48,783 bases of DNA from an uncultured Streptomycetaceae bacterium (GTDB lineage Bacteria > Pseudomonadota > Gammaproteobacteria > Burkholderiales > SG8-41). The translations under genes were made by a program, and so were the position numbers. A model generated the notes under the pieces. That model had not been told where the DNA came from. It was given only the letters and a program-made list of their open reading frames with translations, and did not search any database. Location of the stretch: NCBI GenBank assembly GCA_964564295.1, contig CAZMBS010000003.1, forward strand, positions 1 through 48,783, written 5' to 3'. This document shows, in pieces, positions 8,912 through 40,394 of this stretch (the first letter of the stretch is position 1; each line of letters begins with the position of its first letter).

Positions 8912-9870
8912 TGCAGTCCCTGGACTTTCGCGAACCGGATGACCTTCGCCCATTTCGCGAATTCGTCGCGCAGGAATGCACTGTATTCGCCCGCCGTGTT
9001 GCCCACGGGATCGGAACCTTCCGCCCTGAGGCGTTCCAGCACGTCGGGCGACTTCACGATGCGCGCGACATCGGTATTGATTTTCGCGACGACGTCTTTC
9101 GGCGTGCGCGCGGGCGCGTTGAGGCCGTTCCACGCGACCGCCTGGAATCCCCGGAGCCCGAGTTCGTCGAGCGTCGGCAGTTCCGGCAGCGCTCCGGCGC
9201 GCTGGATGCTCGTCACGCCGAGCGCGCGCAGCTTTCCGGACTTGATGAACGCGATCGCGGAAGTGAGCCCGTTGAAGACGACGTCGACGTGGCCGCCGAG
9301 CAGATCCGTCAGTGCCGGCGCGTTGCCCTTGTACGGCACATGCACCATCTTCACGCCGGCCATGCTGTTGAAAAGTTCGCCCGCGAGGTGGTTCGATCCG
9401 CCGCTGCCCGAGGAGCCGTAGTTGAGCGCGCCGGGCCGCGCCTTCGCCAGCGCGATGAGTTCCTTGATGGTTCGCGCGGGCACGCCGGGATGCACGACGA
9501 CCACGAGCGGGGTCGTGTTGATCAGGATGACCGGCTCGAAATCCCGGGCCGGATCGTAAGGAAGTTTCGCGGCAAGGCTCGGCACGATCGTGAACGGGGC
9601 GGGAGTCACGAGCAGCGTGTGGCCGTCGGCAGGCGCGCGTGCAACGATTTCCGTCGCGATCACCGTGCTGCCGCCGGGGCGGTTGTCGACGACGATCGAT
9701 TGTCCCCACGCGTCTGCCAGCTTCACCGATAGCGTGCGCGCGACGATGTCGGTGCTGCCGCCCGCGGCGAACGGCACGACGAGCCGCACGGCCTTCGACG
9801 GAAATCCCTGTGCGCCGGCACAGAAGCTTGCGCAGCAGAAAATAATAAATAAAAACAATCGATTACGCAT
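8908..9870 (-). CDS. Bug/TctC-family periplasmic substrate-binding protein
   Basis: 320-aa ORF. Bug blocks VRLVVPFAAGGSTD, VVDNRPGGSTVIA, PDGHTLLV, PGALNYGSSGSGGSNHLAGE and HVPYKGNAPA. The signal peptide MRNRLFLFIIFCCASFCAGAQG is encoded by a strikingly AT-rich stretch (9839-9870). Confidence 0.9.
   Translation of the reverse strand: MRNRLFLFIIFCCASFCAGAQGFPSKAVRLVVPFAAGGSTDIVARTLSVKLADAWGQSIVVDNRPGGSTVIATEIVARAPADGHTLLVTPAPFTIVPSLAAKLPYDPARDFEPVILINTTPLVVVVHPGVPARTIKELIALAKARPGALNYGSSGSGGSNHLAGELFNSMAGVKMVHVPYKGNAPALTDLLGGHVDVVFNGLTSAIAFIKSGKLRALGVTSIQRAGALPELPTLDELGLRGFQAVAWNGLNAPARTPKDVVAKINTDVARIVKSPDVLERLRAEGSDPVGNTAGEYSAFLRDEFAKWAKVIRFAKVQGLQ
9838..9865 (+). repeat. AT-rich element A (A/T tract + AACAA-TCGA-TTA core)
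   Basis: The sequence is AAAATAATAAATAAAAACAATCGATTA. It shares an exact 15-mer, AAATAATAAATAAAA, with element C (34294-34308, opposite strand). The core matches the IHF consensus WATCAANNNNTTR with one mismatch. It lies inside codons 2-11 of the Bug gene. Confidence 0.6.
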
Positions 9871-10954
9871 GGCGCACGCGCGGCGTCGCCGCGTCCTTGT
9901 CCTGGTCTGGTGAGACGTGCAACGTGCCGAGCCGTTCCATCGCGGCCCGGGCCTCCGCTTCGATCCGGTCGACGATCGCGGCGACCGGCTCGATCCGGTC
10001 CGCGAACACGACGCCCTGGCCGCACGACAGCATGGCCTTGTCGAAGTCGCCGGTTTCGTAGGCCTTGCGCGCGACGGTGCCCACGATGTGCGGCAGCAGC
10101 GCTTCGGTGTCGCCCGCGCGCTCTTTTTCCAGTTGCTGAATCATCGCCACGTGGCCGGTTTTCAGCGCGCGCTGCGTGTTGCGCATCGTCTGCAGCAGCA
10201 GCGTGGTGTCGGTTTCTCCCGCAGCGACGAGGCGTTCCTTGTAGCCGCGGTGCGCCCGTATTTCCTCGGAGACGAGAAAACGCGTGCCCATCGCGATGCC
10301 GTCCGCGCCGAGTGCGAGCGCCGCGACGAGTTGCGCGCCGGTGCCGAGCCCGCCGGCCACGATCAGCGGAATCTTTACCGCGCGCGCAGCGGCGGCGGCC
10401 ATGACCATGGTGCCGACCGGTTCCACACCGGGGTGGCCGCCGGCTTCCGCGCCGACGACGGTGACCGCATCCGCGCCGAGCGACTCGGCTTTTCTCGCAT
10501 AACGCACGCCCGGCACCTTGTGCAGCACGACGATGCGCGCGTCCTTCAGGCGCCGGATGTAAGCCTCCGGGTTGTTGCCGGCGGTCTCGACGTAGCGCAC
10601 GCCTTCTTCGATTACCGCGTCGATGAGCGGCGCGACGCGATCCGTGCCGTCGCGGCTCGCGCGGATCATGATGTTCACGCCGAACGGCCTGTTGCCGGCG
10701 ATTTCGCGGCAGCGGCGGATGCCCGCGCGCAGCGCCGCCGTGTCCGGAAAACTCGCCGCCGTCATGAAGCCGATCAGTCCCGCGTTGGCGATCGCGCCGA
10801 CGTATTCGGGATTGGCGAGCCACATGAGCCCGCTCGCGATGACGGGCAGGCGGATGCCGTAGAGTTCGGTGACGCGGGTCCGGAAGGGTGGGCGCATGGC
10901 GGTCGGCGAAAATGCGGCGCTCGCGGCGTTCGCGGCCGCAATGATAACGCGCAT
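9863..10954 (-). CDS. nitronate monooxygenase (NMO / 2-nitropropane dioxygenase) family flavoprotein
   Basis: 363-aa ORF with a TIM-barrel FMN pattern: GIRLPVIASGLMW, FGVNI, GADAVTVVGAEAGGH, IPLIVAGGLGTGAQL and GADGIAMGTRF. An alternative, family-typical start is ATG 10897 (MRPPFRTRV...). It overlaps the downstream Bug start by 8 nt. Confidence 0.85.
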   Translation of the reverse strand: MRVIIAAANAASAAFSPTAMRPPFRTRVTELYGIRLPVIASGLMWLANPEYVGAIANAGLIGFMTAASFPDTAALRAGIRRCREIAGNRPFGVNIMIRASRDGTDRVAPLIDAVIEEGVRYVETAGNNPEAYIRRLKDARIVVLHKVPGVRYARKAESLGADAVTVVGAEAGGHPGVEPVGTMVMAAAAARAVKIPLIVAGGLGTGAQLVAALALGADGIAMGTRFLVSEEIRAHRGYKERLVAAGETDTTLLLQTMRNTQRALKTGHVAMIQQLEKERAGDTEALLPHIVGTVARKAYETGDFDKAMLSCGQGVVFADRIEPVAAIVDRIEAEARAAMERLGTLHVSPDQDKDAATPRVRHA

Positions 10955-10999
10955 CCTGTGCTAGGCTTGAACAAAATGTCACCCCGGGGGTACACGGAC

Positions 11000-12001
11000 A
11001 TGCGTATCGAGAACAGCCGCCCCGTTCCGTTGCTCGAACACCTCGCGGCGGGCATCACTGGCGCGCTGCTCTGCGGCACGCTCGCGGCGGCCGAGGCCGA
11101 GTGGCGGCCGGTGAAAGCCGTGGAACTCGTCGCGATCAACGCGCCGGGCGGCGGGTCCGACCGCATCCTGCGGCTCATGGCGAAGGTGATGCAGGACCAG
11201 CGCTCGCTCGACGTGCCCGTCAACGTGGTCAACAAGCCGGGCGGCGGCGGCGCGGTCGCGTATGGCTACGTGAACCAGCACAGCGACGGCCACGGCATCG
11301 TGCTCGCCAACAAGTCGATACTGACCAACAACATCATCGGGCGCGGCCCGAGTTACACCGAGCTTGCCCCGGTCGCGAAACTGTTCGAGGAATACATTTC
11401 CGTGACGGTGCGGCCGGACTCGCCGTGGAAGGGCGGCCGGGACGTCGTCGAAGCGCTGCGCAAGGACGTGAATTCGCTCGCGCTCGGCATCGCCACGAGC
11501 ATCGGCAACCCCAACCACCAGGGCCTCGCAGTCGCGCTGAGCCTCGGCGGCGTCGATATCCGGAAAACCCGCAACGCGATTTTTCCGTCGGGCGGCGCGG
11601 CGACCACCGCGTTGATGGGCGGGCACGTCGACGTCGCGCCGGTCACCGCCGCGTTCGCGGCGTCGCTGCTGCGCAACGGGCAGGTGCGCGTCGTCGCGGT
11701 CGCGGCGCCGCAGCGGCTCGGCGGCGTGCTTGCGGACGTTCCCACGTGGCGCGAGCAGGGCTACGACGCGGTGGTGTCCAACTGGCGGGCCTTCCTCGGG
11801 CCCCGCGGGCTCGCGCCCGCGCGCCTCGCGTACTGGGAGCAGGCCTTCCGTCGTCTCAACGAATCCGACGAATGGAAGAAGGAACTGGCGGACAACCTCT
11901 GGATCGCGGATTACCAGCCCGGCGCCGCGCTGCGCGCGCAACTGGACCGCGACGACGCGCAGCAGCGCGCGTTCCTCAAGGAACTCGCGCTCGCCAAATA
12001 G
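11000..12001 (+). CDS. TctC/Bug-superfamily periplasmic binding protein, divergent subtype
   Basis: Coding-like sequence begins at MRIENSRPVPLLEHLAAGITGALLCGTLAAAEA (alternative ATG at 10976). Blocks VVNKPGGGGAVAY, GGHVDVAPV, VPTWREQGYD and DEWKKEL are shared with the protein at 29242-30216. It lacks the HVPYKG block of the classical Bug genes. Confidence 0.85.
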   Translation: MRIENSRPVPLLEHLAAGITGALLCGTLAAAEAEWRPVKAVELVAINAPGGGSDRILRLMAKVMQDQRSLDVPVNVVNKPGGGGAVAYGYVNQHSDGHGIVLANKSILTNNIIGRGPSYTELAPVAKLFEEYISVTVRPDSPWKGGRDVVEALRKDVNSLALGIATSIGNPNHQGLAVALSLGGVDIRKTRNAIFPSGGAATTALMGGHVDVAPVTAAFAASLLRNGQVRVVAVAAPQRLGGVLADVPTWREQGYDAVVSNWRAFLGPRGLAPARLAYWEQAFRRLNESDEWKKELADNLWIADYQPGAALRAQLDRDDAQQRAFLKELALAK

Positions 12002-12021
12002 CGCCGACCCGCGCGCTATTT
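11996..12021. terminator. hairpin between convergent genes that embeds both stop codons
   Basis: AAATAGCGC (11996-12004) pairs with GCGCTATTT (12013-12021) around an 8-nt loop. The plus-strand TAG (11999-12001) and the minus-strand TAG (12016-12018) both lie in the stem. The A/T runs flanking it could serve as U-tracts in either direction. Confidence 0.4.
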
Positions 12022-16113: not shown

Positions 16114-17502
16114 ATGGCCGCGAACGATCCTTCTCCGGCGACTTTCGCCCGACAACTGGCCGCGCACATCGTGGCGGTCGACGGGGCGAACCTGCCCGAG
16201 GAATCGCTGTGCTGGAGCCGGATCGCGCTGCGCGATACGGTCGGCGTCACGCTGGCGGGCGCGGCGGAAGATTGCGCGCGGATCGTCGGAGACGTGGCTG
16301 TGGAGAGCGCGGGGCCGTGCGTGATCGCCGGAACATCGCGCCGCGTCGCGCCGCTCGATGCGGCGCTCGTCAACGGCACCGCGGCGCATGCGCTGGATTT
16401 CGACAATTCCACCAACACGATGTTCGGCCACGCCTCCGCCACCATGATGCCGGCGCTGCTCGCGGCGGCGGAAGCGTTCGGCGGCAGCGGGCGCGACGTG
16501 CTGGCCGCGCATGTGGCGGGCTTCGAGACCGGCGCGCGCGTGGGCCGCGCGGTGAACCTGCATCACTACGAAACCGGATGGCATCCGACCTCGACGCTGG
16601 GCGCCATCGCCGTCGCGGCGGCCTGCGCGCGGCTGCTGCAACTCGACGTCGATGCCACCACGACGGCGCTCGCGCTGTCGACCTCGCTCGCATGCGGCAT
16701 CAAGGCGAATTTCGGCACCATGACGAAGCCGCTGCATTCGGGGCAGTGCGCGCGCGCCGGCCTCATGGCGGCGCTGCTCGCGCGCAAGGGATACACCGCC
16801 AACCCGGAGGCATTCGAGCACAAGCAGGGATTCTTCAACGTATTCGACGGTCCCGGGAATTTCGACGCGCGGCGCGCGCTGGACGGCTGGGGCGACCCTT
16901 ACGACATCGTCGAGCCCGGCGCCTGCTACAAGCAGTACCCGTGCTGCGCGAGCACGCACGCCGCGATCGACGCGGCCATTGCATTGCGCGAGCGGCATGC
17001 GCTGTCCGCCGGCAGCATCAAGCGCATCGAGACGTTCACGCCGGCGCGCCGGCTCGCGCACACCGACCGGCCGGACCCGCAGACGGCGCTCGATGCGAAA
17101 TTCAGCGTGCAGTACTGCGTTGCGCGCGCGCTCGCGAGCGGCAGCGTCGTGTTCGAACACTTCGAGGGCGATGCGTTTCGCGATCCGCCGGTGCGCGCGC
17201 TGCTCGGCAGGGTGCGAGCCATGCCGCACGCGCCGGGACAGTTCCCGACGCAGAACAACGCGGGCGCCGCGGTGCGCGTGACGCTCGCGGACGGGCGCGC
17301 GTTCGCGACGCAGGTTGAAACGCCGCTCGGCCGCACGGCGCGCATGCCGATTCCCGACGCGGGCCTGCGCGACAAATTCGTGAGCTGCGCGCGGCGCGCG
17401 TTGCGGGACGACGCGGTCGCACAACTGTTGGAACTCACGGACCGGTTCGACGCATTGTCGTCGGTCGTGCCGTACACTGCGCTGCTCGCGCGAACGAATT
17501 GA
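16114..17502 (+). CDS. MmgE/PrpD-family protein, paralog of 3858-5273
   Basis: The coding part starts at ATG 16114 (MAANDPSPATFARQLAAHIV). It shares long identical runs with the first paralog: LDAALVNGTAAHALDFDN, GWHPTSTLG, YKQYPCCA, TPARRLAHT and LDAKFSVQYCVARAL. Confidence 0.9.
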   Translation: MAANDPSPATFARQLAAHIVAVDGANLPEESLCWSRIALRDTVGVTLAGAAEDCARIVGDVAVESAGPCVIAGTSRRVAPLDAALVNGTAAHALDFDNSTNTMFGHASATMMPALLAAAEAFGGSGRDVLAAHVAGFETGARVGRAVNLHHYETGWHPTSTLGAIAVAAACARLLQLDVDATTTALALSTSLACGIKANFGTMTKPLHSGQCARAGLMAALLARKGYTANPEAFEHKQGFFNVFDGPGNFDARRALDGWGDPYDIVEPGACYKQYPCCASTHAAIDAAIALRERHALSAGSIKRIETFTPARRLAHTDRPDPQTALDAKFSVQYCVARALASGSVVFEHFEGDAFRDPPVRALLGRVRAMPHAPGQFPTQNNAGAAVRVTLADGRAFATQVETPLGRTARMPIPDAGLRDKFVSCARRALRDDAVAQLLELTDRFDALSSVVPYTALLARTN

Positions 17503-17527
17503 AAACATTATTGTTATCAATAACTTA
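17501..17527 (+). repeat. AT-rich element D (A/T tract + perfect IHF-type core TATCAATAACTTA)
   Basis: The sequence is GAAAACATTATTGTTATCAATAACTTA, in the 62-bp gap after the PrpD-like gene. Positions 17515-17527 fit WATCAANNNNTTR exactly. It also contains the inverted repeat TTATTG-N4-CAATAA and is followed by the GC hairpin GCGGCC-N9-GGCCGC. Confidence 0.5.
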
Positions 17528-17564
17528 TCGCGGCCGCGCCTGAGGGCCGCGTAGCGTATCGCGC

Positions 17565-20598: not shown

Positions 20599-21093
20599 AT
20601 GTTGCGGAAGGCATCGAACGAACGCAGGGCGGCGGCGATGTACGACAACTGGCAGGCTAACGGCGCGGTCGTCGCCGCCACCGCCGCCGCCGTCACGCTC
20701 GCGGTGCTCGTGCACTACGAGGGCCTCCTCGTCGTGTCGCGCAAGCTGCAGCGCCAAGGCGGTCGCCAGCGCGCGAAAGTGCTGTATGCGATTTTTTCGG
20801 TGCTGGTGCTTCATGTGATCGAAATCTGGCTCTTCGGGCTCGTGCTGTGGGCGCTGCTGCATTGGCCGGCGTGCGGCAGCCTCGTCGTCGCCGGTGTGCC
20901 CGGCGCGCCGGCATTCTTCGACGCGATCTACCTTTCCGCCATCACGTTTACCACGGTCGGCTTTGGTGATGTGGTGCCGGTCGGACCGATCCGTTTCCTG
21001 TCCGGCACCGAGGCGCTGACGGGCTTCGTGCTGGTCACGTGGTCCGCGTCATTCACGTATCTGGAGATGGAGCGCTTCTGGCGCGCTCCCTGA
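20599..21093 (+). CDS. minimal K+-channel-like protein (Ion_trans_2 pore module only)
   Basis: 164-aa ORF with hydrophobic helices flanking a pore-loop and selectivity-filter-like sequence, YLSAITFTTVGFGDVVP. No cytoplasmic regulatory domain is present. Alternative start ATG 20638 (MYDNW). Confidence 0.7.
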   Translation: MLRKASNERRAAAMYDNWQANGAVVAATAAAVTLAVLVHYEGLLVVSRKLQRQGGRQRAKVLYAIFSVLVLHVIEIWLFGLVLWALLHWPACGSLVVAGVPGAPAFFDAIYLSAITFTTVGFGDVVPVGPIRFLSGTEALTGFVLVTWSASFTYLEMERFWRAP

Positions 21094-21213
21094 CATCGAA
21101 AGGGCGGATTTGGTAAATCGATGAATATCATGAGGTTTTCGCGCAGGATTCGTCCGGGTGTCCGCGCGTGAAAGGTAATGCGCGCCGGGACGACCAAGGC
21201 ACAGGAGGCAAGA

Positions 21214-21849
21214 ATGAACGAAGAACGGGGCATTTGCAGTGATCCGCGGCGGCGTGCGTTTCTGGCGACGTCGGTGGCAGCGGGCGCATTGCTTGCGTTT
21301 TCCGGAAGGGCGCGCGCGCAAGTGCATGCGATGACCGGCGAAATTTACGTGAACGGCCAGCGCGCGCAGGCCGACGCAACGTTGCGTGCGGGCGATCGCA
21401 TCCTGACCGGCCCGGACAGCACCCTGACGTTTGCCGTCGGGCAGGATGCGTTTCACGTGCGCCAGCTCACGTCGTTCCAGGTCGAGGCCACCGGCGCGCT
21501 GGTTTCGGGCCTGCGCATACTCACGGGCGCGCTCGTTGGCGTGTTCGGCAAGGGGCCGAAACAGATCCGAACCGCGACGGTCACGGCCGGCATACGCGGC
21601 ACCGGCGTCTACATCGAGGCGAATCCGGTGCTCACGTATTTCTGCACCTGCTACGGCGAGGTCGATCTCGAATGCGTCGGTTACAAGTCGACCAAACGCG
21701 TCAGCGCGACCAATCATTCGCCGAACTACGTGTTCGCGGAGGTGCTGAAAGGCGCATCCATCGTCGACGCGCCGCGCATCAATCACACCAATGCCGAGCT
21801 CGCGATGCTGGAACGGCTCGTCGGGCGCGAGTCGCCGCTGAAATCTTGA
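21214..21849 (+). CDS. Tat-exported FecR-domain protein
   Basis: AGGAGG Shine-Dalgarno before ATG 21214. Twin-arginine signal DPRRRAFLATSVAAGALLAFSGRARA. FecR-like beta-rich segment GEIYVNGQRAQADATLRAGDRILTGPDSTLTFAVGQDAFHV. Confidence 0.7.
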   Translation: MNEERGICSDPRRRAFLATSVAAGALLAFSGRARAQVHAMTGEIYVNGQRAQADATLRAGDRILTGPDSTLTFAVGQDAFHVRQLTSFQVEATGALVSGLRILTGALVGVFGKGPKQIRTATVTAGIRGTGVYIEANPVLTYFCTCYGEVDLECVGYKSTKRVSATNHSPNYVFAEVLKGASIVDAPRINHTNAELAMLERLVGRESPLKS

Positions 21850-25686: not shown

Positions 25687-26868
25687 ATGCATATCGCAAT
25701 AACCGACGAGCAGCGCGCATGGCAGATGAAGGCGCGCGAATTCGCGCAGAACGTGCTGCGGCCGCGCTCGCTCGAACGCGACCGGATACCCGGCGCGCGC
25801 GACACTTTCGACTGGGACATCGTCCGGCAGGGCTCGCAGCTCGGCTTTCGCACGGCGGTGGTCGCCAGGGAACTCGGCGGTCACGGCATCGACATGATCA
25901 CGCAGGCCCTGATCATCATCGAACTCGCGAAAGGCGACAGCCCGATGGCGAAGACGTTCAGCCAGTGCTGGAAGTGGAGCCATCTGATCGCCGGCGCGTG
26001 CACGAAAGAGCAGCAGGAGCGGTTCCTGAAGCCCTTCGTCGCGGACGATACCTATCTGCTGGGGCAGGCCGGCACGGAACCCAATTCGGGCTCGGACCAC
26101 CGGCTGCCGCCGGAGGAGGACCCGCGCGCGGGATGGCGTCTGCGCGCCGAGCGCGACGGCGACGAATGGGTGCTGAACGGCGAGAAATGTTTCATCGCGA
26201 ACGGCAGCGTGGCGAAGCTCTTTCTGATCAGCACGCGCACCAACCCCAACGTGCCGCAGAAGGAGGGCGGCACCGTGATCGCGGTGCCGGTCGGCACGCC
26301 GGGCATGCGCATCGGCAAGGTGTTCAACAAGAGCGGCTGGCGCTACTACCAGAACGCGGAACTGATTTTCGAGAACTGCCGCGTGCCGCACGCGAATGTC
26401 GTGGGCGAGGTGAACGGCGGCTCGGCGGTGCGCAACGGCCCCGCGCGCGCGTTCGGCGATTTCGAGCTGGGCGCGAACGCGCTCGGCATCTGCGACGCGG
26501 CGGTGGAGCTCGCGATGAAACACGTGGGCACGCGCTGGCCGGAGAACCGTTACTTCAAGGACAACCAGACCATACAGCTGAAGCTGTCGCGCATGCACAT
26601 GATGACCGAGGCGCTGCGTTCGTTCGTGATGCGCGTCGCCGCGGAAGGCAATGCGAAGGTGTCGAGCGCCGCGAACAACGCGATTCTGCTGCAGAACTTT
26701 GCAACCGACGCGCTGCAGGAGGTCACCGCGTTGAACCTCGACATTCATGCGAGCGCGGGGGTGTCCGCGCTGAACGCTGCCGCCGAAAAACTGGAGCGCG
26801 ACGCGGTCATCTGGACGCATCTGGCCGGCGACTCCGTGCAGCGCATGAAGGCCGTCAGAAAACACTAG
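25687..26868 (+). CDS. acyl-CoA dehydrogenase-family protein (type A)
   Basis: 393-aa ORF with an AGGAGGGA Shine-Dalgarno. ACAD middle-domain pattern GTEPNSGSD...WVLNGEKCFIANGSVAKLF...GMRIGKVFNKSGWRYYQNAELIFENCRVP. A paralog lies at 30297-31484. Confidence 0.85.
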   Translation: MHIAITDEQRAWQMKAREFAQNVLRPRSLERDRIPGARDTFDWDIVRQGSQLGFRTAVVARELGGHGIDMITQALIIIELAKGDSPMAKTFSQCWKWSHLIAGACTKEQQERFLKPFVADDTYLLGQAGTEPNSGSDHRLPPEEDPRAGWRLRAERDGDEWVLNGEKCFIANGSVAKLFLISTRTNPNVPQKEGGTVIAVPVGTPGMRIGKVFNKSGWRYYQNAELIFENCRVPHANVVGEVNGGSAVRNGPARAFGDFELGANALGICDAAVELAMKHVGTRWPENRYFKDNQTIQLKLSRMHMMTEALRSFVMRVAAEGNAKVSSAANNAILLQNFATDALQEVTALNLDIHASAGVSALNAAAEKLERDAVIWTHLAGDSVQRMKAVRKH

Positions 26869-26899
26869 AAGAAACAACCGGTTACAGAAGGAGTTCGCC

Positions 26900-28138
26900 A
26901 TGTACAACCTGCACCTGACCGCCGAACAACAGGAATTTCGCGAGGCCGTGCGCGATTTCGTCGAGCGTGAAATCAAGCCGGTCGTGCTGCATCCGGACCG
27001 GCTGCAGGACTTCAGCAAGCCGCTGCCGCTCGCGTTGATCGCACAGGCCGCGCAGATGGGCCTGCGCAGCGTCATGCTGTCCGAGGAGCTCGGCGGCGCG
27101 GGAGGCAACGCGCTGACCGCATGTCTCGTCGCGGAGGAGCTCGCGGCGGGCGACGTCAATATTGCGGTCACGCTGGCCGAGACCTGGACGGTCGCCGGGC
27201 TACTGTTCGAGAAGATGATGACGACCGAACAGCGCACGCGCTACCTCGCGAAGTTTCTGGAGGACGACGCGTTCCATCTGGCGATGGCGCCGCACCGGCC
27301 CGATCCGGAACTCGGCTGGAAGTACCACCGGCCGCTCGCCGAGGAACCTGCAGCCCGGCTGGCGGCCACGCGCCAGTCGAACGGCGACTGGATCGTGAAC
27401 GGCACGACGGCATTCGTGCAGAACGCGCCGCTCGCGAAATTGATCGTCATCCAGGCGCGGTCGGGCTCCGGGGCCCTGGTGACGCTGCTCGCGCCGGCCG
27501 GCACGGCCGGCATGGCCGTGCGGGAAGTCGGCGGACCGGATACCGTGAGGTGGTATCACGGCGCGGGCGGCGAAATCGCGTTCAGCGATTGCCGGATCCC
27601 CGCCGAGAATCTGCTCGGCGACGGCGCAAACGCACCGCTGAAGGCCATGCACGAGGGCCGCGGCACGCCGCAGACGCAGGCGATGAACGTCGGCGTCGCG
27701 CGCGCCGCGTACGAGGCGGGCGTGAACTACGCGAAAATCCGCGTGCAGGGCGCCCGTCCCATCATCCAGCATCAGGCGATCGGCACGATCCTTGCCGATG
27801 CTGCCGTGAAAATCGAAGTCGCGCGCAACTTCGTGCGCACCGCGGCCTGGGCCGCGGATCATCCCGACGCCGTGGCGGATCGCAGCCTCACGGATCTGCC
27901 GCTGCAGTCGATCGCGCGGGTCTATGCGTCGGAGGCGCTGCACGAGGCAACCGAAGGCGCGACGGAGTGTTTCGGCGCGATGGGCGTCATGCTCGACATG
28001 CCGCTCGCGAAGTACATGCATGATGCGCGCGTGTTCCTGCATTCCGGCGGGTCCAACGCCGTCGAGAAACTCCGTATCGCGGAGGCGCTCGCGGGATTCG
28101 AACGGCCGGCTGCGGCGGCGGTCAAGGCCGCGGCGTAG
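26900..28138 (+). CDS. acyl-CoA dehydrogenase-family protein (type B), likely partner of the preceding gene
   Basis: 412-aa ORF with a GAAGGAG Shine-Dalgarno. It has the ACAD fold pattern (MYNLHLTAEQQEFREAVRDFVEREIKP..., WIVNGTTAFVQNAPLAKLIV, GVARAAYEAGVNYAKIRVQGARPIIQHQAIG) but is strongly diverged from type A. Confidence 0.8.
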   Translation: MYNLHLTAEQQEFREAVRDFVEREIKPVVLHPDRLQDFSKPLPLALIAQAAQMGLRSVMLSEELGGAGGNALTACLVAEELAAGDVNIAVTLAETWTVAGLLFEKMMTTEQRTRYLAKFLEDDAFHLAMAPHRPDPELGWKYHRPLAEEPAARLAATRQSNGDWIVNGTTAFVQNAPLAKLIVIQARSGSGALVTLLAPAGTAGMAVREVGGPDTVRWYHGAGGEIAFSDCRIPAENLLGDGANAPLKAMHEGRGTPQTQAMNVGVARAAYEAGVNYAKIRVQGARPIIQHQAIGTILADAAVKIEVARNFVRTAAWAADHPDAVADRSLTDLPLQSIARVYASEALHEATEGATECFGAMGVMLDMPLAKYMHDARVFLHSGGSNAVEKLRIAEALAGFERPAAAAVKAAA

Positions 28139-33328: not shown

Positions 33329-36178
33329 CTAAGCCGGGTGTTTCGGCGGCAGGGCCGTTTCTTCGCTGAGGTCCGGCTCGCCGCAGAGCCGCAGCATCTC
33401 GGCGCGCGCGCTGTCGCGCAGCCGGATCGCCGCGTCCCAGCCGGTGCCCGCGGGTTCGATCGGCGCACTGAAGGTGATGCTCACGCGGCTGCGGCGAAAG
33501 AGCCAGGTGCCGTCGCGCAGCGCGGAGCGCGTGCCGCGCAGCGTGACCGGCACGACGGGCACGCCGGCCTGTGCGGCGACGACGAACGCGCCCATGCGGA
33601 ACGGCAGCAGTCCCGGCATCCGGCGGAACGTGCCTTCGGGAAACACGATCAGCGATTTGCCGGCGCGCGCGGCTTCGACGAAGCGACCGGTGTCCTCCAC
33701 GCCGCGCTGCGCATCGAGCCGGTCCACGAACACGGCGCCGATGCGCCGCAGGAATATGCGCGGAACCCAGTGGCCCAGCAGTTCGCTTTTCGCGACGAAG
33801 GATTTCGGCTGCGGCAGCGCCGCCGCAAGCAGGATGCCGTCGAGGTAACTCGCGTGGTTCACGACCATGACGCAGGTGCGCGCGTCCGGCACGTTTTCGA
33901 TGCCGCGCACGTCGAGGCGCATCCCGGTCAACGCGGCGAACGCGCGCGCCATGCCGCCGCTCAGCCGCCATGCCCGATCGGTTCGCGCGAGCGGCGCGCA
34001 CGCGAGCCACACGAGCGTGCCCATCGTGCCGAGCAGCAACAGCGCGTACGCGCCGTACAGCCGGTCGCCGATCGCGCGCAGCACGCGCCGCAACTGCGGC
34101 AGCATCGCCGCGAACGTGAGCCGCGCGACCTGCAGCCACACGGCGCGCCGCGCGGTCGTGCCGCCGCGCTCGTACACCTCGCGGCTCGCGGAGCGCCGAA
34201 TCTTGCCGCTCGAAGTCTTGAGTACCGTGCCGGGCGGCGCGAGCATCACGTCGTCGGCGGCGATCCCGAGCAGGGAAACAGACAACTCGTTGATTTTATT
34301 TATTATTTCCTCTCGGCGTTGCGGATCTGCTTCGCGCGTTTCCGCGAGCACGATAATTTTCTCGGTGCCGGCACGCGCGTCGCTGCTGCCGAATACGGCG
34401 ACGCACCCCTTGCGTACGCCGTCCACGCTGCCGACGGCTTCCTCGAGATCGTACGGGTGTATGTTGCGTCCCGCGCGGATGATGGTGTCCTTGATGCGGC
34501 CGGTGATGTAGACGTCACCCGCGGCGATGTAACCGTAGTCGTCGGTGTCCATCCATTCGCCGTGCAGCAGCTTGCGTGTCGCCTCGGGGTTGCGGTAGTA
34601 ACCGCTCGTCACCGACGGCCCGCTGAACTGGATGTGACCCTCGCGCCGCTCGGGAAGCTCCTGTCCGGCATCGTCGACGACGCGCACCTGGTGCCCCGGT
34701 ATCGGATGGCCGCACGCGACGTGGGTGAGCGCATCGGCGTGCTCCGGCGGCACGGGGTCGGCGCGCCCGCCGCGCATGAACGCATTCTTGTCCACGCGGT
34801 CGAGCACCGGGCCGCGCAGCGGCGGCGGAAACGCGACACCCAGCGTCGCTTCCGCGAGCCCGTATACCGGTGCCATCGCGCCGGGCCGGAAACCCCAGCG
34901 CGCGAAGCGTTTTGTGAACGCATCCATCGTGTCCGGCGACACCGGCTCTGCGCCGTTGAACGCGAAGCGCCATGAGGAAAGATCGATGCCCGCCATGTCC
35001 GCGTCCTGTATCCGGCGCACGCAAAGCTCGTAGCAGAAGTTGGGGCCGCCGGTGAGCGTGCCGCCGTGCCGGTGGATCGTGCGCAGCCACCGCTCCGGCC
35101 GGGACAGAAACGTGAGCGGCGACATGACCGGGTACTTGAAGCCGTACAGCAGGCTGCCCATCCACGCGCCGATGAGCCCCATGTCGTGATAAAGCGGCAG
35201 CCAGCTCACGAACACGTCGGCCGGCGTGACCTGGAGCGCGCGGCCCATCGCGCGGATGTTCGTCAGCAGATTCGCATGCGTGAGCACGACGCCTTTCGGA
35301 TTGCCGGTGCTGCCCGAGGTGTACTGCAGCATGGCGATGTCCTGCGGCTTGCCGCGATGGATCGACGCCACGCCGCCCGGACGCAGCAATTCATCCGGCG
35401 TCATCACGTGCTGCAGCGTTTCCACGCGCGGCTTCAGCAGCACCGCCAGCGGTTTCGCCTGCGGCACCGTGATGAGCATTCCCGCCAGCGCATTGGACAG
35501 TATCGTCGCGTGGCGCCGCAGGTGATCCTCGATCTGCGACGGGCGCGCCGGCGGGTAGATCGGCACCGGTATGCCGCCCGCGAGCAGTATTCCGAAGAAG
35601 CTGAAGAAATACTCGACGCTCGTCGGCAGCATGATCGCCACCGCGCGTCCCGGCTCGAGCCCGCGTTCGATCAGTCCCGCGGCGATCGCGCGCGCGGCGG
35701 CATCGAGTTCGCCGTAGGTCACGGTGCGCTCGGCGCCTGCCTCGTCCTGCAGCACGATATGCGGGCGCTGCGGGTGTTTCGCCACGTGCCACGCGAGCAC
35801 TTCCGGCAGCGTCGTCGCGTCCTCGGGTGTCTGCGCTTCGGTGGCGAGCGCCGAGACGCGCTCGATCGTCGCGACGTGACCGGCGCGCGCGGGGCCGGCC
35901 GCGAGTATCGCGCGCAACAGATCGCGCGGGGTTTCGGCGCTCGACATCACGGATTCCGGCAGGCCGGCGCCGAAGCGTTTCTCGATACGCACGAAGAGTT
36001 CGACGCGCCCGAGGCTGTCGAAACCGTAGTCCTGCTCGAGCCGGCTGTCGAGCGACGCGGGCAGTCCGGCGCGGTTGGGATGCAGTTCGAGCGCGAGCCC
36101 GCGGACAAGTGCGATCAGCGCATCGGCGCTGACTTCGAAGGTACCGTTGTGCTGCGGCGTCGCGGCGGCGGTTTCCAC
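33329..36178 (-). CDS. tri-domain fusion: acyl carrier protein - fatty acyl-AMP ligase (FAAL-type AMP-binding) - membrane segment - lysophospholipid/glycerolipid acyltransferase (PlsC/LPLAT)
   Basis: ACP phosphopantetheine site: LEQDYGFDSLGRVELF. AMP-binding cores: LQYTSGSTGNPKGV, YGLAEAT, GRIKDTIIRAGRNIHPYDLE and KTSSGKIRR, with the FAAL-like IPVPIYPPARP. Hydrophobic stretch: LYGAYALLLLGTMGTLVWLACAPLA. LPLAT blocks: VVNHASYLDG (HX4D), FVAKSEL, VFPEGTF and VPVVPV. The start is uncertain. I use GTG 36178 because the track ATG at 36331 lies inside the upstream lipoprotein gene. Confidence 0.85.
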   Translation of the reverse strand: METAAATPQHNGTFEVSADALIALVRGLALELHPNRAGLPASLDSRLEQDYGFDSLGRVELFVRIEKRFGAGLPESVMSSAETPRDLLRAILAAGPARAGHVATIERVSALATEAQTPEDATTLPEVLAWHVAKHPQRPHIVLQDEAGAERTVTYGELDAAARAIAAGLIERGLEPGRAVAIMLPTSVEYFFSFFGILLAGGIPVPIYPPARPSQIEDHLRRHATILSNALAGMLITVPQAKPLAVLLKPRVETLQHVMTPDELLRPGGVASIHRGKPQDIAMLQYTSGSTGNPKGVVLTHANLLTNIRAMGRALQVTPADVFVSWLPLYHDMGLIGAWMGSLLYGFKYPVMSPLTFLSRPERWLRTIHRHGGTLTGGPNFCYELCVRRIQDADMAGIDLSSWRFAFNGAEPVSPDTMDAFTKRFARWGFRPGAMAPVYGLAEATLGVAFPPPLRGPVLDRVDKNAFMRGGRADPVPPEHADALTHVACGHPIPGHQVRVVDDAGQELPERREGHIQFSGPSVTSGYYRNPEATRKLLHGEWMDTDDYGYIAAGDVYITGRIKDTIIRAGRNIHPYDLEEAVGSVDGVRKGCVAVFGSSDARAGTEKIIVLAETREADPQRREEIINKINELSVSLLGIAADDVMLAPPGTVLKTSSGKIRRSASREVYERGGTTARRAVWLQVARLTFAAMLPQLRRVLRAIGDRLYGAYALLLLGTMGTLVWLACAPLARTDRAWRLSGGMARAFAALTGMRLDVRGIENVPDARTCVMVVNHASYLDGILLAAALPQPKSFVAKSELLGHWVPRIFLRRIGAVFVDRLDAQRGVEDTGRFVEAARAGKSLIVFPEGTFRRMPGLLPFRMGAFVVAAQAGVPVVPVTLRGTRSALRDGTWLFRRSRVSITFSAPIEPAGTGWDAAIRLRDSARAEMLRLCGEPDLSEETALPPKHPA
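34283..34310 (-). repeat. AT-rich element C (A/T tract + perfect IHF-type core AATCAACGAGTTG) embedded in coding sequence
   Basis: The minus strand reads GGAAATAATAAATAAAATCAACGAGTTG and encodes EEIINKINEL of the FAAL domain. It shares an exact 15-mer with element A and matches element E at 22/30 positions. Confidence 0.6.
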
Positions 36179-36263: not shown

Positions 36264-36282
36264 GTGCCGTGCGCGGGGCCGG

Positions 36283-36828
36283 TCAGCTGCCGATGTGCAC
36301 CTGATACTGCGCGCCGTTTGAAAACGCGCACGTGCCGGCACCCATGTTCGGCGCGTTCATCTGATACTCGCAGCGCGCGAACGTGCCGCGCGGGCCGTGG
36401 GCGCTCGCGAGGCCGCGCCGCTCGTCGTTGGCGACGCGCGTTGCTTCACCTACCAGCGTTTCGCCCTGGTAGATGAACGAGAAGCGTCCCTTGCCATTCA
36501 TGTAGTTCGTGACCGATCCGGTGAGCACGCCGGTCTGGTTGGCGAGATCGTTCGCCGGATAGAGCCGCACCGGCAACGTGGCCGGGAATGCCGGGCGCGT
36601 TGCGGCCGTCTCGCCCGGTGCCGGGTGCGGCGGCAGCGTGACGATTGCGCCGGCGACCGGATACGTGGCGATCGAGCCGTCGGGATTGACCGGTACGACG
36701 TAACAACCCGTAAGCAGTCCGGCGGCAAGACCCATGGCGGCGATGATTCGCGGCGATCCCTGTGCGCGTTGGAAGGGTGTTCTTTCCGGCGAAGTGCGTA
36801 CGCAATCTGGTGTTCGGGCAGCAGTCAT
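36283..36828 (-). CDS. hypothetical lipoprotein
   Basis: GGAGGA Shine-Dalgarno 6 nt before ATG 36828. Lipobox LLTGC follows the hydrophobic stretch RIIAAMGLAAG. The mature part of about 140 aa is Gly/Thr/Asn-rich (VTNYMNGKGRFSFIYQGETLVGEATRV...CEYQMNAPNMGAGTCAFSNGAQYQVHIGS). I do not recognise a family. Confidence 0.65.
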   Translation of the reverse strand: MTAARTPDCVRTSPERTPFQRAQGSPRIIAAMGLAAGLLTGCYVVPVNPDGSIATYPVAGAIVTLPPHPAPGETAATRPAFPATLPVRLYPANDLANQTGVLTGSVTNYMNGKGRFSFIYQGETLVGEATRVANDERRGLASAHGPRGTFARCEYQMNAPNMGAGTCAFSNGAQYQVHIGS

Positions 36829-36922
36829 GAAAGATCCTCCAAGTTGATCGCGGAAGCGCCGTATCGTCCGACTGGACCTCGGCACCGCGACGGGTCGGAT
36901 GATCGGGGGTCCGGAGTTGCGA

Positions 36923-36955
36923 ATGGATTACCGATGGGTCACGGATGGGTCACCG
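36923..36955 (-). promoter_or_regulatory. three direct repeats phased at exactly 11 bp; candidate winged-helix/SARP operator upstream of the lipoprotein operon
   Basis: The plus strand reads ATGGATTACCG | ATGGGTCACGG | ATGGGTCACCG (36923, 36934, 36945). An inverted copy, GGATGGGATG, lies on the other strand at 36959-36968. The repeats sit 95-125 bp upstream of ATG 36828. Confidence 0.5.
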
Positions 36956-36968
36956 CAGCATCCCATCC

Positions 36969-36998
36969 GGAAAAAGAAAGCAAAATCAATGAGTTGGG
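36969..36998 (+). repeat. AT-rich element E (A-tract + perfect IHF-type core AATCAATGAGTTG)
   Basis: The sequence is GGAAAAAGAAAGCAAAATCAATGAGTTGGG, a 22/30 match to element C. The core at 36984-36996 fits WATCAANNNNTTR exactly. It lies between the 11-bp repeats and the palindrome TTTCCGGAAA (37003-37012). Confidence 0.55.
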
Positions 36999-37013
36999 AT
37001 CGTTTCCGGAAAA

Positions 37014-40000
37014 TCAGCCCGGCTTCACAACCTGATCGTACAGCGCGCGGGTCTGCGGTCCCGGCTCGACGGAGAGGTATGCGGCAAGCGCGCGCCGGCA
37101 CCGGTCGAACGTTTCGGCGGCGTCGGCGCGCCGGCCCGCACGGTCGTATGCCGTCATCAGATGCCGGTACAGCGACTCAATCGTGGGATCCGATTCCAGC
37201 GCGCGCTCGAGGTAGTCGATCGCCTGCCCTGCGTCGCCGCATGCCAGGCAGCGCTGCGCGAGGTCTCCAGCGGTTCTCGCGAATCGATGGCGTTCGCGGT
37301 CCCGCAGCGGGAGCGTCCATGCTGCGTCGGAATCATTGGCGAGGAACGCACCGGTGTAAATGGCAAGCAGTCGCTCCCCGAGTTCTCGAAGCTGTGCGAG
37401 GTCGGGTTCCTCGGCGGCCGGTCGCATCAGGGGGCCGAGCCGGCCGACGATCTGTCCGAAAGCCCAGGTGTCCACCCAGACGTAACGTCCGTCGAGCGAG
37501 AGTTTTCCCTCCGACAGTTGCAGAACGCGGTCCTCGCCGAACAACCGGCGCAGCCGGTGCAGCGTCGTCGTGAATGAACGGTGCGCGGAGTCTCCGTCAA
37601 TGCGGGGCCACAGCGCTTCGGTGATGCGATCCTCGGGAACCTCGCGCCCGCCGTGGGCAACCAGAACCTTCAGCAGATCCAGCGGTCGCCGTTGCGCCTT
37701 GCCGGTGAACGACACTGCCGTTCCGTGCCGCAGCAGCCGGAACGAGCCGAAAGTCTGCACGCGGAATGGCCACGGCCATTCGACCAGGGCTGCGGTTGCG
37801 GCGTCCAGCGCGAGCCGTCGTTCCTGTACGATGCGGGACGCGAATTCACGCGCCACGTCGTGCTCCAGCGCGATGCTGCAGAGCCGCGCAAGCGGGCCGG
37901 GTTGCCACAGCAGGCAACTCGTGAAATGCCGCGGCTTCGCGATGTCGAGCGCGTATCGCAGCGCGCGCAATCCGGAACGCGGACGGCGTGCCCGATCGAG
38001 GCTCACGTAGGCGTAGTTCAGGAGTCCGATGAACTGGATCAGCGGGCTGTGGATGGGGCGTGCGAGGTCGTAGACCCGCTGAAAATGCGCGAAAGCCCGG
38101 CGCTCCTCGCCGCTTTCGTAGAGCACCAGCGCGGATGCCACGTGGCACAGCACTTCGTAGGTCGGACAGCCGACCTCGATCGCCATCGTGAGCGCGAGTT
38201 TCTGCTGTTGAAACGCGCGCGCGCTGTCGCGTCGCAACAGGGCTGCCCACGCCGAAAACAGATGGAAGAGGCAGAGGTCGAAACGCGCCGGGCTGCCCTG
38301 CAGCGCGGTGAACTGTTGCAGCAGCGACTCTGCGGTGTCCGGATCCCCGGACATGAGCGCGCCCCCGGCTCCATTGGCGAGCAATTGGTAGGACAGCACC
38401 TGAACGCCCTCACCGCGCTCGATGTCGAGGCCGGCCCGCACTGCCGCGAGACAGGAGTCGCGGTCATTGGTCAGCATGAAATAGCTTGCTTCGGCGAGAT
38501 AGAGCGTCGTTCGCGCGAAAGGCGTTACGTCATGTTCCGCGGCCACCCGTCGCATGCCTTCGATCACGGCCCAGGTTTTCGGGAAATGACCTTCCCACAT
38601 CATGCTCAGGGCGACGCGCCAGTCCACGAGCATGCGCAGGTTGGGGTCGTCCTGCGCGCGAGAGGCGCGGTAACCGCGTTCGACCCATCGTGCAAGGTCC
38701 GGATGGTGGGGCTGACGCACGCTCATCGACGTCAGCAGGCTGCACGAGAGCCGCGCGTCGAGTTGCGCCGACAGCAGATCCGGATACCGCGACAGCAGAT
38801 CCTCCATGACCGCGATCCACTGGTCGAGCAGCGAAAAATCGTCGACTTCATACAGGATCGCGTCCATGGCGCCCGAACAGGAAAACAGCAATCCCAGCGG
38901 ATCGGGCGTGCCCTGCTCGCGGAACAAACGATGGGCCCGTTCCTGCAGGGCGCGGCTTGCGCGGGGAGACGCCTGCATGCGGGCGACAGCGAGCCAGTAG
39001 AGCGTCCACGGGTCGCGCTCCTGGATTTCACGCGGCAGTGCCTCCACCCACTGCGCGAGCGTTTCGCCGCGCCCGGAATCCAGCATCGCGCGCGCCTGTC
39101 CGTTGATGAGGTTTTGCAGCCTTGGCCAGTCCCCCGCCGCGCGGGCGAGCAGGGCCGCCTCGGTGACCCATCCCTCGTTCGCCATCAGTTCCGCGGACTG
39201 TCGCTGCAGGGCGCTGCGCCGCTCGCGTGGCAGTGATGCGACCCGCGACACCAGGAAGTCGCGGAACAGCGGGTGGTATTCGTATACCGGTTGTGGCGTC
39301 GCGCGTTTGAGCGACACGAAGTAGTTGCTGCGATGCAGCCGCGCGAGGCGTTCGCCCGCGTTGGCGTGCCCGGACACCGCGCAGGCCATGTCCGCCGTCA
39401 TCTGTGGCAGGTACGCGGTGGACAACAGGATGTCGCGGTCTTCCGCGTCGGTTTTCTCGAGAATTTCGCCTGCGAGGTAGTCGAAGACGAGTTGTGGCGT
39501 CGTCAGATCCGGCGGCGCGCCGGGCGCGTGGCCCTCGGGCGTGTGTTCGAGCATGAGTACGAGTCCCGCCGCCCAGCCCTGAGTCCTGTCGTACAGCGCG
39601 GCAAGCGCCTTCGGCGCGAGCCGGCGGCTGCGCCGCGCGGCAATCGCGTCAGACTCGTCGCGCGAGAGCCTCAGTTCACTCCAGCCGATCGACACGAGTT
39701 GCCGGTTCGCCCGCAAGCGTGCCATCGAGACCGGCGGGTCGCCGCGGCTGATCAGGATAACGCAGCCGCCGGACGGAACCTCGGTCAGCGCGCACATCAT
39801 GACTTCATGCAGTCGCGATTGCGGCGGCAAATCGTGGTAACCATCAAACACGATCGCGAATGACGCGCCGAGATGCTTGTACATCGCCTGAAAATATCGC
39901 CGCGCGAATGCCGGAAGCGTTGCGTGCTGTTGGGGCGTCAACTGCGGCAGCCGCGCCGCGGTTCGACGGCCTGCGGCGTTCGCAGCGAGTCCGAGGTGGT

Positions 40001-40241
40001 AGAAAAATGACGCCGGATCGGCGTCGCCTTCGTCGATCTGGTACCAGAGGGAACGCGCTTTGCACTGCTCCAGGAAACTGGCCGCCAGCGTGGTTTTTCC
40101 CGAGCCCGGCGGCCCCGTGATCCATACGGCGGGACTTTTTCTGGCCTGGTCAAGCAACGCGAACAAGCGTGCGCGCGGCAGCACGCCGGCAAAGCTCGGC
40201 CGCGTAGTCTTGGCGATCGTCGGGCGGGATTTGGCCATCAC
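37014..40241 (-). CDS. large transcriptional regulator: MalT-type STAND P-loop NTPase + helical repeat (TPR-like) region + C-terminal OmpR/SARP-type winged helix + BTAD
   Basis: 1075-aa ORF. The N-terminus is MalT-like: RARLFALLDQARKSPAVWITGPPGSGKTT (Walker A), FAIVFDGYHDL (Walker B-like) and TQGWAAGLVL. The C-terminus has a winged helix (VQTFGSFRLLRHGTAVSFTGKAQRRPLDLLKVLVAHGGREVPEDRITEALWP) and a BTAD (LLAIYTGAFLANDSDAAW...LERALESDPTIESLYRHLMTAYDRAGRRADAAETFDRCRRALAAYLSVEPGPQTRALYDQV). Confidence 0.85.
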   Translation of the reverse strand: MMAKSRPTIAKTTRPSFAGVLPRARLFALLDQARKSPAVWITGPPGSGKTTLAASFLEQCKARSLWYQIDEGDADPASFFYHLGLAANAAGRRTAARLPQLTPQQHATLPAFARRYFQAMYKHLGASFAIVFDGYHDLPPQSRLHEVMMCALTEVPSGGCVILISRGDPPVSMARLRANRQLVSIGWSELRLSRDESDAIAARRSRRLAPKALAALYDRTQGWAAGLVLMLEHTPEGHAPGAPPDLTTPQLVFDYLAGEILEKTDAEDRDILLSTAYLPQMTADMACAVSGHANAGERLARLHRSNYFVSLKRATPQPVYEYHPLFRDFLVSRVASLPRERRSALQRQSAELMANEGWVTEAALLARAAGDWPRLQNLINGQARAMLDSGRGETLAQWVEALPREIQERDPWTLYWLAVARMQASPRASRALQERAHRLFREQGTPDPLGLLFSCSGAMDAILYEVDDFSLLDQWIAVMEDLLSRYPDLLSAQLDARLSCSLLTSMSVRQPHHPDLARWVERGYRASRAQDDPNLRMLVDWRVALSMMWEGHFPKTWAVIEGMRRVAAEHDVTPFARTTLYLAEASYFMLTNDRDSCLAAVRAGLDIERGEGVQVLSYQLLANGAGGALMSGDPDTAESLLQQFTALQGSPARFDLCLFHLFSAWAALLRRDSARAFQQQKLALTMAIEVGCPTYEVLCHVASALVLYESGEERRAFAHFQRVYDLARPIHSPLIQFIGLLNYAYVSLDRARRPRSGLRALRYALDIAKPRHFTSCLLWQPGPLARLCSIALEHDVAREFASRIVQERRLALDAATAALVEWPWPFRVQTFGSFRLLRHGTAVSFTGKAQRRPLDLLKVLVAHGGREVPEDRITEALWPRIDGDSAHRSFTTTLHRLRRLFGEDRVLQLSEGKLSLDGRYVWVDTWAFGQIVGRLGPLMRPAAEEPDLAQLRELGERLLAIYTGAFLANDSDAAWTLPLRDRERHRFARTAGDLAQRCLACGDAGQAIDYLERALESDPTIESLYRHLMTAYDRAGRRADAAETFDRCRRALAAYLSVEPGPQTRALYDQVVKPG

Positions 40242-40283
40242 TCGCGATTATGCGTGATTCCGTGCGATGTCGCAGCCGGCGCA

Positions 40284-40314
40284 ACGTATTAAAAATAATA
40301 AAAACAATACGTTA
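40284..40314. promoter_or_regulatory. palindrome ACGTATT-N15-AATACGT enclosing AT-rich element B (AACAA-TACG-TTA core)
   Basis: Perfect 7-bp arms at 40284-40290 and 40306-40312 flank the spacer AAAAATAATAAAAAC. The element shares AAATAATAAA and AAACAAT with element A. It lies in the 199-bp divergent region between the regulator and fadE. Confidence 0.5.
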
Positions 40315-40394
40315 CAGATATTTTCCGGTTTTCCGGTCGCGTGCTGCGCCGCCGGCGTCGGACGGCCGGCCCGACACAAGGCTCTTTTCCCGCC

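Follow-up and report, generated by a model that had tools for sequence, protein, structure and literature searches.

Why should a GC-rich betaproteobacterial contig carry conspicuous AT-rich elements of about 30 bp, each ending in a core that resembles the binding site of integration host factor (IHF)? The window analysed here is the entire 48.8-kb contig CAZMBS010000003.1, part of an assembly of 3.35 Mb in 344 contigs (~65% GC, 76% complete). The nearest relatives of the FadE protein encoded in the window are found in metagenome-assembled genomes of Betaproteobacteria/Burkholderiales (72-77% identity), and the host is an uncultured betaproteobacterium. An earlier note on this DNA had described five such elements, A to E, as a family. 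All five sequences were verified at their claimed coordinates, but the family turned out to have about 400 members spread through the genome rather than five. With a probability of roughly 0.8, we consider each element to be a complete high-affinity-type site for the IHF heterodimer, in a family kept by selection at the DNA level, with IHF as the predicted binder in vivo.

The elements were scored with a 32-nt matrix that was built iteratively from this genome alone and applied with a cut-off of at least 24 bits. Element A lies at 9837..9868 on the plus strand (36.4 bits, sequence GAAAATAATAAATAAAAACAATCGATTA, core AAACAATCGATTA), element D at 17499..17530 on the plus strand (31.5 bits, sequence GAAAACATTATTGTTATCAATAACTTA, core TATCAATAACTTA) and element C at 34280..34311 on the minus strand (37.2 bits, sequence GGAAATAATAAATAAAATCAACGAGTTG). 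Elements E (36968..36999, 27.4 bits, sequence GGAAAAAGAAAGCAAAATCAATGAGTTGGG, core AATCAATGAGTTG) and B (40286..40317, 34.3 bits, sequence AAAAATAATAAAAACAATACGTTA, core AAACAATACGTTA) are both on the plus strand. As had been reported, D, E and B are intergenic, B being in a divergent spacer, and A and C lie in coding sequence. C, D and E are the sole three exact matches to WATCAANNNNTTR within the window, and A and B both carry the variant core AAACAA. The 15-mer AAATAATAAATAAAA is indeed common to A and C; the genome holds only one further copy of it (on contig C191), making three in total. C and E agree at 22 of 30 positions, counted by eye.

A canonical IHF site consists of a WATCAA core, a TTR four bp further on, a pair of AA steps separated by nine bp, and a tract of 4-6 A in the 5' half (PMC1874591). 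At core positions 0 to 5 of the genomic motif (n=813), we counted A 651, A 657, T 482 or A 299, C 754, A 775 and A 609, and at positions 10 to 12 T 602, T 753 and A 488 or G 240, with positions 6 to 9 nearly uninformative. The TTR is present four bp 3' of the core in all five elements. At -5/-4, which precedes the AA at +4/+5 by exactly nine bp, A (504) is followed by A (376) or T (289); this step is AA in elements A, B and C, AT in D and AG in E. The 5' A-tract appears as an A/T peak, mostly A, at -14 to -10. It contains at least four A in elements A, D and E, reads GAAAT in C and is displaced by ~3 nt in B. The information in the matrix is restricted to -14 to +13 (~28 bp), with none at the four positions (N4) between core and TTR or outside this range. 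Each of the four elements of a canonical IHF site is present in the motif, correctly spaced.

Chance was controlled for the matrix by shuffling inside 20-30-nt blocks, which preserves local composition and AT islands, and for word patterns by counting the identical pattern in reversed order. The reversed matrix matches the same AT islands and so serves poorly as a control at low thresholds. The genome has 436 raw matches of at least 24 bits compared with ~13 in local block shuffles, and 414 non-overlapping sites, about one per 8 kb. WATCAANNNNTTR occurs 156 times genome-wide versus 11 times reversed, AAAWCAANNNNTTA 144 versus 3 times and AAACAANNNNTTR 147 versus 8 times. AT islands (at least 17 A/T in 20 nt) number 361, compared with ~18 expected from composition, and when they are read together a single recurring word emerges, approximately AATAAAAWCAAYnnnTTA. 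The window has an ordinary density, with 4 such islands against ~5 expected at the genome rate. Chance and composition are thus ruled out as the cause by the reversed patterns and the block shuffles; the earlier estimate that chance was unlikely stands, and the genome-wide enrichment check proposed with it was strongly positive. AAACAA cores match AATCAA cores in abundance (147 versus 156), which supports the acceptance of AACAA as a variant.

The matrix was then re-expressed for the base composition of phage lambda, which was outside the training set, and the whole lambda genome (~97,000 positions) was scanned. The match of rank 2, at 71-102, falls in cosB and is IHF site I1. Ranks 4 (27681-27712) and 9 (27748-27779, sequence AAAAAAGCATTGCTTATCAATTTGTTG) lie beside the attP core annotated in the record at 27724-27738, and are the sites named H2 and H', respectively. 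In H', TATCAATTTGTTG, an AAAAAA run starts 14 nt before TATCAA, and the A-tract of the genome motif likewise starts 14 nt ahead of its core. IHF also acts at lambda pL and cII. Ranks 1 and 7 (35745 and 35654) are upstream of the position that we assume for pL, and ranks 8 and 12 (38309 and 38325) are just before the one that we assume for cII. The top lambda matches in cosB and upstream of pL likewise have A at the third core base, suggesting that the AAACAA form of elements A and B is within the binding range of IHF. The description of a ~30-bp element made of an A/T tract and an IHF-type core is therefore well founded, in its anatomy as well as in the recognition of known lambda IHF sites.

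Where the sites lie relative to genes was determined from a gene map made with a home-made codon-usage caller, which trims AT-rich N-termini. This caller puts ~70% of the sites between genes, with ~90% of the genome coding; as ~10 of the "intergenic" copies really lie in signal-peptide codons, the true intergenic share is nearer 60-65%. The intergenic density, estimated from the counts, is roughly 25-30 times the coding density. Per kb, there are 1.13 sites in tandem spacers, 0.50 in divergent and 0.60 in convergent ones. In tandem spacers the median gap to the stop of the upstream gene is 18.5 nt, and 59 of 206 sites overlap that stop; over all sites, 107 of 414 have a stop codon inside them. 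The commonest single arrangement (21 sites, element A included) uses the TTA of the motif as a TAA stop on the other strand. Relative to start codons, the genome sites show neither a constant distance nor a constant orientation.

The earlier suggestion that the elements stand next to regulated-looking genes therefore fails as a family trait, given the missing start relation, tandem spacers that are twice as dense as divergent ones, and the preference for stop codons. The same results bear on the possibility that the elements are gene-specific operators or promoter elements of the adjacent fatty-acid and transport genes. Such a function would fit the position of B in the divergent spacer between fadE and a regulator gene, the recurrence of a site upstream of fadE at five related loci, and the position of E beside a repeat-bearing control region. 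However, about 400 copies stand beside genes of all kinds, without fixed distance or orientation to starts; divergent promoter regions are the least dense, a quarter of the copies include stop codons, and seven further related fadE loci have no site. We consider gene-specific operators very unlikely.

The motif is asymmetric, and its copies face either way with respect to transcription (80 versus 126 in tandem spacers, 58 versus 49 at stop codons). An Rfam search of the window gave zero family matches. The flanks of the sites show no hairpin excess, with folding energies of -11.4 and -10.8 kcal/mol versus -12.3 kcal/mol in control spacers. An RNA element is ruled out by the absent Rfam matches together with the two orientations, and terminators or hairpins like those of repetitive extragenic palindromic (REP) units are ruled out by the lack of excess. 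A replication-strand role like that of FtsK-orienting polar sequences (KOPS) or Chi was rejected as well, with 127 versus 118 sites relative to local GC skew (p = 0.61). Taken together, both orientations and the lack of Rfam matches, hairpins and strand bias indicate that the element acts as DNA rather than RNA and is neither a terminator nor REP-like.

These observations also limit the idea that the copies are remnants of a small mobile or repetitive element carrying an IHF site, such as a MITE (a miniature transposable element with inverted repeats), a REP unit or bacterial interspersed mosaic element (BIME), or a Correia-like element. The high, lineage-specific copy number would be natural for such remnants, and the RIP/BIME elements of E. 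coli and the Correia elements of Neisseria do carry IHF sites. Nevertheless, nothing is conserved here beyond the 28 bp, the N4 is variable, and there are neither inverted repeats nor an excess of flank hairpins. Coding copies are in frame and without indels relative to orthologues, and no target-site duplications or empty/filled-site pairs were seen among close relatives. Of the explanations considered, we regard mobile-element remnants as the least probable.

To place the family among relatives, AAAWCAANNNNTTA was counted with its reversed control in 30 related genomes, and 100 genomes of the family were used for the genus pattern. The 144 copies of this genome (genus g1, control 3) compare with 941 in G012 (g13, control 19), 776 in G007 (g8, control 13), 387 and 261 in G008 and G017 (g9, controls 2 and 6), 99 and 86 in G009 and G018 (g10, controls 7 and 5), and 143 in G025 from another family (control 24). 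Most other relatives have 3-20 copies, near control. Across the 100 family genomes abundance is fixed by genus, with five rich genera (g9, 30/30; g13, 18/18; g10, 4/4; g8; and g1 itself) and five poor ones (g3, g4, g5, g7 and g12). We used gyrB as the species marker in a single-gene tree; rpoB was not found in this 76%-complete assembly. The rich genera appear in the tree as (g9,(g13,g8)), g10 and g1, with the poor g5 nested among them and the poor g4 and g2 beside g1. Because the rich genera do not form one clean clade, more than one gain or loss is needed. The gyrB genes of G012 (L176) and G007 (L180), which belong to sister genera, have a common 32-bit site inside the gene at +1942 in the same orientation (CAAATCAATAAGTTACAG), indicating that sites are heritable. 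About 1.2-1.3 kb upstream of gyrB, weak-to-strong matrix matches were observed in several rich and poor genomes, reaching 36 bits in G012. We took this region to be of the dnaA-dnaN/oriC type, and the matches would fit a classical origin IHF site.

Within this genome, the sites are spaced more evenly than random. The coefficient of variation of spacing is 0.71, compared with 0.92-0.94 for random distinct spacers (0-2 of 500 shuffles reach the observed value), and 3 neighbour distances are under 1.5 kb where ~15 are expected. Even spacing and lineage-specific abundance that switches between genera would also be expected of a tag like a DNA uptake sequence, amplified by biased uptake and recombination in competent lineages and merely IHF-like. 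Coding copies lie in tolerant positions and in certain frames, as do the uptake sequences of Haemophilus and Neisseria (PMC2817400). In addition, the site in the fatty-acyl-AMP-ligase (FAAL) fusion gene, described below, occupies identical codons in two genera, although the two proteins share just 55% identity. On the other hand, known uptake sequences occur about once per kb, compared with about one site per 8 kb here, and 60-70% of the copies are intergenic although the genome is ~90% coding. The core is split by an uninformative N4, the IHF contact geometry is matched at four separate elements, and known lambda IHF sites are picked out by the matrix. An uptake tag therefore appears unlikely to us.

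We then looked at the genes for the candidate binders. The PF00216 matches form three groups, IhfA, IhfB and HU; this grouping was read from a tree of DNABII proteins without seven rows, and the HU result was re-tested by direct protein search. The ihfA gene was found in this genome (G000:C43:97-363), and both IhfA and IhfB were recovered in most relatives whose DNABII genes were extracted and translated. Their sequences are nearly identical between motif-rich and motif-poor genomes. With the HU protein of G014 as the query, HU was detected in 0 of 54 genomes of rich genera, the own genome being 76% complete, and in the poor genera in 12/14 genomes of g3, 15/18 of g4, 1/1 of g7, 1/6 of g5 and 0/7 of g12. 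"Rich implies no HU" is thus true in every genome searched, but "no HU implies rich" is false. The highest count in g3 (58) belongs to G013, which lacks HU. G011, which represented g12 in the PF00216 search, has four matches, and g12 probably has other DNABII paralogues.

A different AT-preferring nucleoid protein, either H-NS/MvaT/Lsr2-like or a lineage-specific factor confined to the rich genera, would give a natural account of the genus-level on/off pattern through gain and loss of a dedicated protein. The upstream half of the motif, TCAATAAAAT, is also similar to the H-NS nucleation motif, TCGATAAATT. However, H-NS (PF00816) had no match in G000, which is 76% complete, and was found in 1 of the 18 family relatives searched. 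Its loss does not separate rich from poor genomes and was rejected as a correlate of richness; being missing family-wide, H-NS is uninformative. The asymmetry of the motif and the TTR at a fixed 4-bp spacing are explained by IHF rather than by H-NS, and no candidate protein emerged. The chance that another nucleoid protein is responsible seems small.

Several points weigh against IHF as the binder and selected sites as its targets. Core position 2 is T in just 59% of cases and A in 37%, whereas the textbook consensus has T. The ihfB gene was not found in this genome, which is 76% complete. If IHF is nearly identical throughout the family, binding alone leaves the ~100-fold difference between sister genera unexplained. 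The link to HU is imperfect, since g5 and g12 are motif-poor yet mostly or wholly without an HU orthologue, and it is based on few independent lineages or events. The spacing test is based on 86 distances in a fragmented assembly.

Elements A and C show how far the sites intrude into coding sequence. The placement of element A was settled by Pfam and frame analysis. Its TTA forms, on the opposite strand, the TAA stop of the nitronate-monooxygenase-like gene at 9863-10954(-), and the remainder lies antisense over codons 2-11 of a TctC/Bug periplasmic receptor gene at 8908-9870(-), whose protein starts MRNRLFLFIIF. Read antisense, the element specifies NRLFLFIIF, the signal peptide's hydrophobic core, with the codons TTG TTT TTA TTT ATT ATT. 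The AT-richness of these signal-peptide codons made the codon-usage caller overlook the start. The start of the TctC/Bug gene overlaps the stop of the nitronate-monooxygenase-like gene at 9863-9870 (ATGCGTAA), which suggests translational coupling. Two further Bug-family genes in the genome have a site at the equivalent place.

Element C lies inside the FAAL-fusion gene at 33329-36178(-), in the C-terminal subdomain, where it is read in frame as EEIINKINELS with the rare codons ATA ATA AAT AAA. The region shows zero indels relative to twelve orthologues. The earlier note had named orthologues that encode the same peptide with GC-rich codons as a result that would refute its reading, and for C the outcome is mixed. 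The closest FAAL-fusion orthologues, from the motif-poor G014 (78% identity) and G003 (71%), do use GC-rich codons: they read REAIRTRINDLA and RERLRARIDELA and score -9.5 and -17.3 bits. In contrast, the orthologue of the motif-rich G007 (55% identity) reads KEIVNKINNLS and keeps a 39.4-bit site at the identical codons. The conserved I-N-x-L (ATC AAC nnn YTN) of the FAAL fusion already supplies half of a core. The site may be old, retained by two rich lineages and lost from the others, or it may have been built twice on the same pre-adapted codons. A further FAAL-fusion orthologue, L086 (G009:C11:88776-91562), has one in-frame TAA within its match and may be split or broken. Genome-wide, the favoured frame of coding copies is K-I-N-x-L (25 of 77), and antisense coding copies are located in hydrophobic segments. 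Selection on the DNA is suggested by the rare AT-rich codons in A and C, by this frame preference, by the G007 sites that correspond in position to C and D, and by the gyrB site common to G007 and G012.

Among the intergenic elements, D overlaps with its A-tract side the TGA stop of an MmgE/PrpD-family gene (Pfam) at 16171-17502(+) and stands ~35 nt ahead of a metallophosphoesterase gene that starts at 17565(+). The G007 copy of MmgE/PrpD most similar to this neighbour (75% identity) has a 33.3-bit site right after its stop in the same orientation; this copy may be an orthologue or a paralogue. The MmgE/PrpD family is much expanded in G007, with 65 matches of E below 1e-30, compared with 9-13 in other relatives. 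Element E lies 15 nt past the stop of a MalT/SARP-type regulator gene at 37014-40241(-) and upstream of a small gene at 36283-36735(-). Beside it, at 36923-36968 and 37003-37012, are direct repeats phased at 11 bp (ACCGATGGGTC / ACGGATGGGTC), together with the palindrome TTTCCGGAAA. These repeats and the palindrome, between the regulator gene and the small gene, look like a regulator-binding array. In the five relatives searched, neither the nitronate-monooxygenase-like gene nor the MalT/SARP regulator gene had an orthologue.

Element B occupies the spacer between this regulator gene (start 40241, -) and fadE (start 40441, +). At the fadE loci of relatives, a site is found 50-200 nt upstream in five, in either orientation, and seven are without one. 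A sigma-54 promoter beside B was considered and rejected: the TGGCAC at 40396-40401, upstream of the fadE start, misfits GG-N10-GC by eye. Among the fadE loci L001-L011 and L067 of relatives, a conserved box, GTGTATGCTGG, turns up in nine related genomes ~60-150 nt before the start, both with and without an IHF-type site. No clear copy is present in the window, where the closest sequence is CGCGTGCTGCG at about 40339. This box may be the -10 region of a promoter or an operator of the fad regulon.

Further copies in the window are weaker, and in the band of 24-26 bits roughly 10% of matches are expected from chance. The sixth candidate of the earlier note, at 47012..47043(+), scores 26.0 bits (AATCATGCCGTTG) and does lie in the signal-peptide codons of fadL (MKKAIKIMPLA), with an in-frame ATG at 47011. 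Three copies are absent from that note. The one at 26856..26887(+) scores 25.3 bits and lies between two acyl-CoA dehydrogenase genes (Pfam), where it overlaps the first gene's TAG stop in the 31-nt spacer preceding the second. Another, at 21111..21142(-) with 25.0 bits, is intergenic between genes at 20599-21093(+) and 21322-21849(+), and a borderline copy of 24.0 bits at 4554..4585(-) lies within a gene at 3858-5273(-). Elsewhere in the genome, contigs C29, C44, C47, C49, C52, C104 and C108 have clusters of long AT-rich islands that misfit the motif, such as a 75-nt stretch at C29:17167-17241 and repeated GGGGTCAGACAC...TATATATTTACAAGTTAT units on C52. These clusters may be mobile or foreign DNA.

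If the elements are IHF sites, as we favour, their function can be outlined from the established structure of IHF. The protein would clamp the 5' A-tract, intercalate a proline at each of the two AA steps, whose separation is nine bp, and read WAWCAA and TTR via the minor groove, folding the DNA into a U-turn. The sites would have arisen and stayed in place rather than having been copied around, and most lie where AT-rich DNA is cheapest: at or shortly past stops, in codons for signal peptides or amphipathic helices, and in spacers. The sites are evenly spaced, favour gene ends rather than promoters, occur in either orientation and are restricted to HU-less genera; together these features suggest a mainly architectural role, in which the sites may serve as fixed bending points for chromosome folding. 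Local promoter geometry may in addition be influenced by single copies, e.g., B in the fadE/regulator divergent region and E beside the control region with repeats.

More tentatively, and with considerable doubt, IHF could be the main chromosome folder of several HU-less genera, acting on a selected "punctuation code" of hundreds of full-consensus sites. Such a code would recur every few kb, docked on stops and present even in essential genes with rare codons, and would be gained or erased wholesale when the DNABII repertoire of a lineage changes. Hundreds of near-perfect sites are evenly spread and largely unrelated to promoters, whereas sister genera with nearly the same IHF have almost none. 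If bound, these sites would be a natural experiment on how a sequence-specific bender can organize the nucleoid and on whether it substitutes for HU. They would also show to what extent codon usage, and even the choice of amino acid, can yield to a code at the DNA level, as at A and C and in gyrB of the relatives. For annotation, AT-rich islands in such genomes should not be taken for promoters, mobile-element scars or foreign DNA, and they also mislead the calling of start codons, as with element A.

IHF sites are known as few sites in particular machines, namely those of recombination, packaging, oriC and sigma-54 promoters. Our full-text literature search yielded no description of comparable dispersed site families, and as far as this search shows, a dispersed, genus-switching and partly in-coding family is undescribed. 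The genome motif has the same four-element layout and spacing as the canonical sites of lambda (H' and H2 of attP, and I1 of cos). It differs in that hundreds of near-consensus copies are dispersed in a GC-rich chromosome, whereas the lambda-type sites are few and belong to specialised nucleoprotein machines. Moreover, its third core base is A nearly as often as T, and many copies overlap stops or coding sequence.

The RIP/RIB (BIME-associated) sites of E. coli and the Correia elements of Neisseria are multi-copy extragenic repeats that bind IHF, and they resemble the present family in having repeated IHF-type sequences in many copies. Those sites form part of palindromic REP units or of elements with terminal inverted repeats, whereas the family described here has no palindrome, hairpin excess or conserved flank, and some of its copies are in frame within genes. 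The likeness to the uptake signal sequences (USS) of Haemophilus and the DNA uptake sequences (DUS) of Neisseria lies in lineage-specific abundance, fairly even spacing, tolerant coding positions and a frame preference. USS and DUS have a contiguous, strongly conserved core of 9-12 nt, occur at about one per kb and are about equally frequent in coding and non-coding DNA. In contrast, the present motif has a split, degenerate core, is ~8-fold sparser and strongly intergenic, and its geometry is that of IHF.

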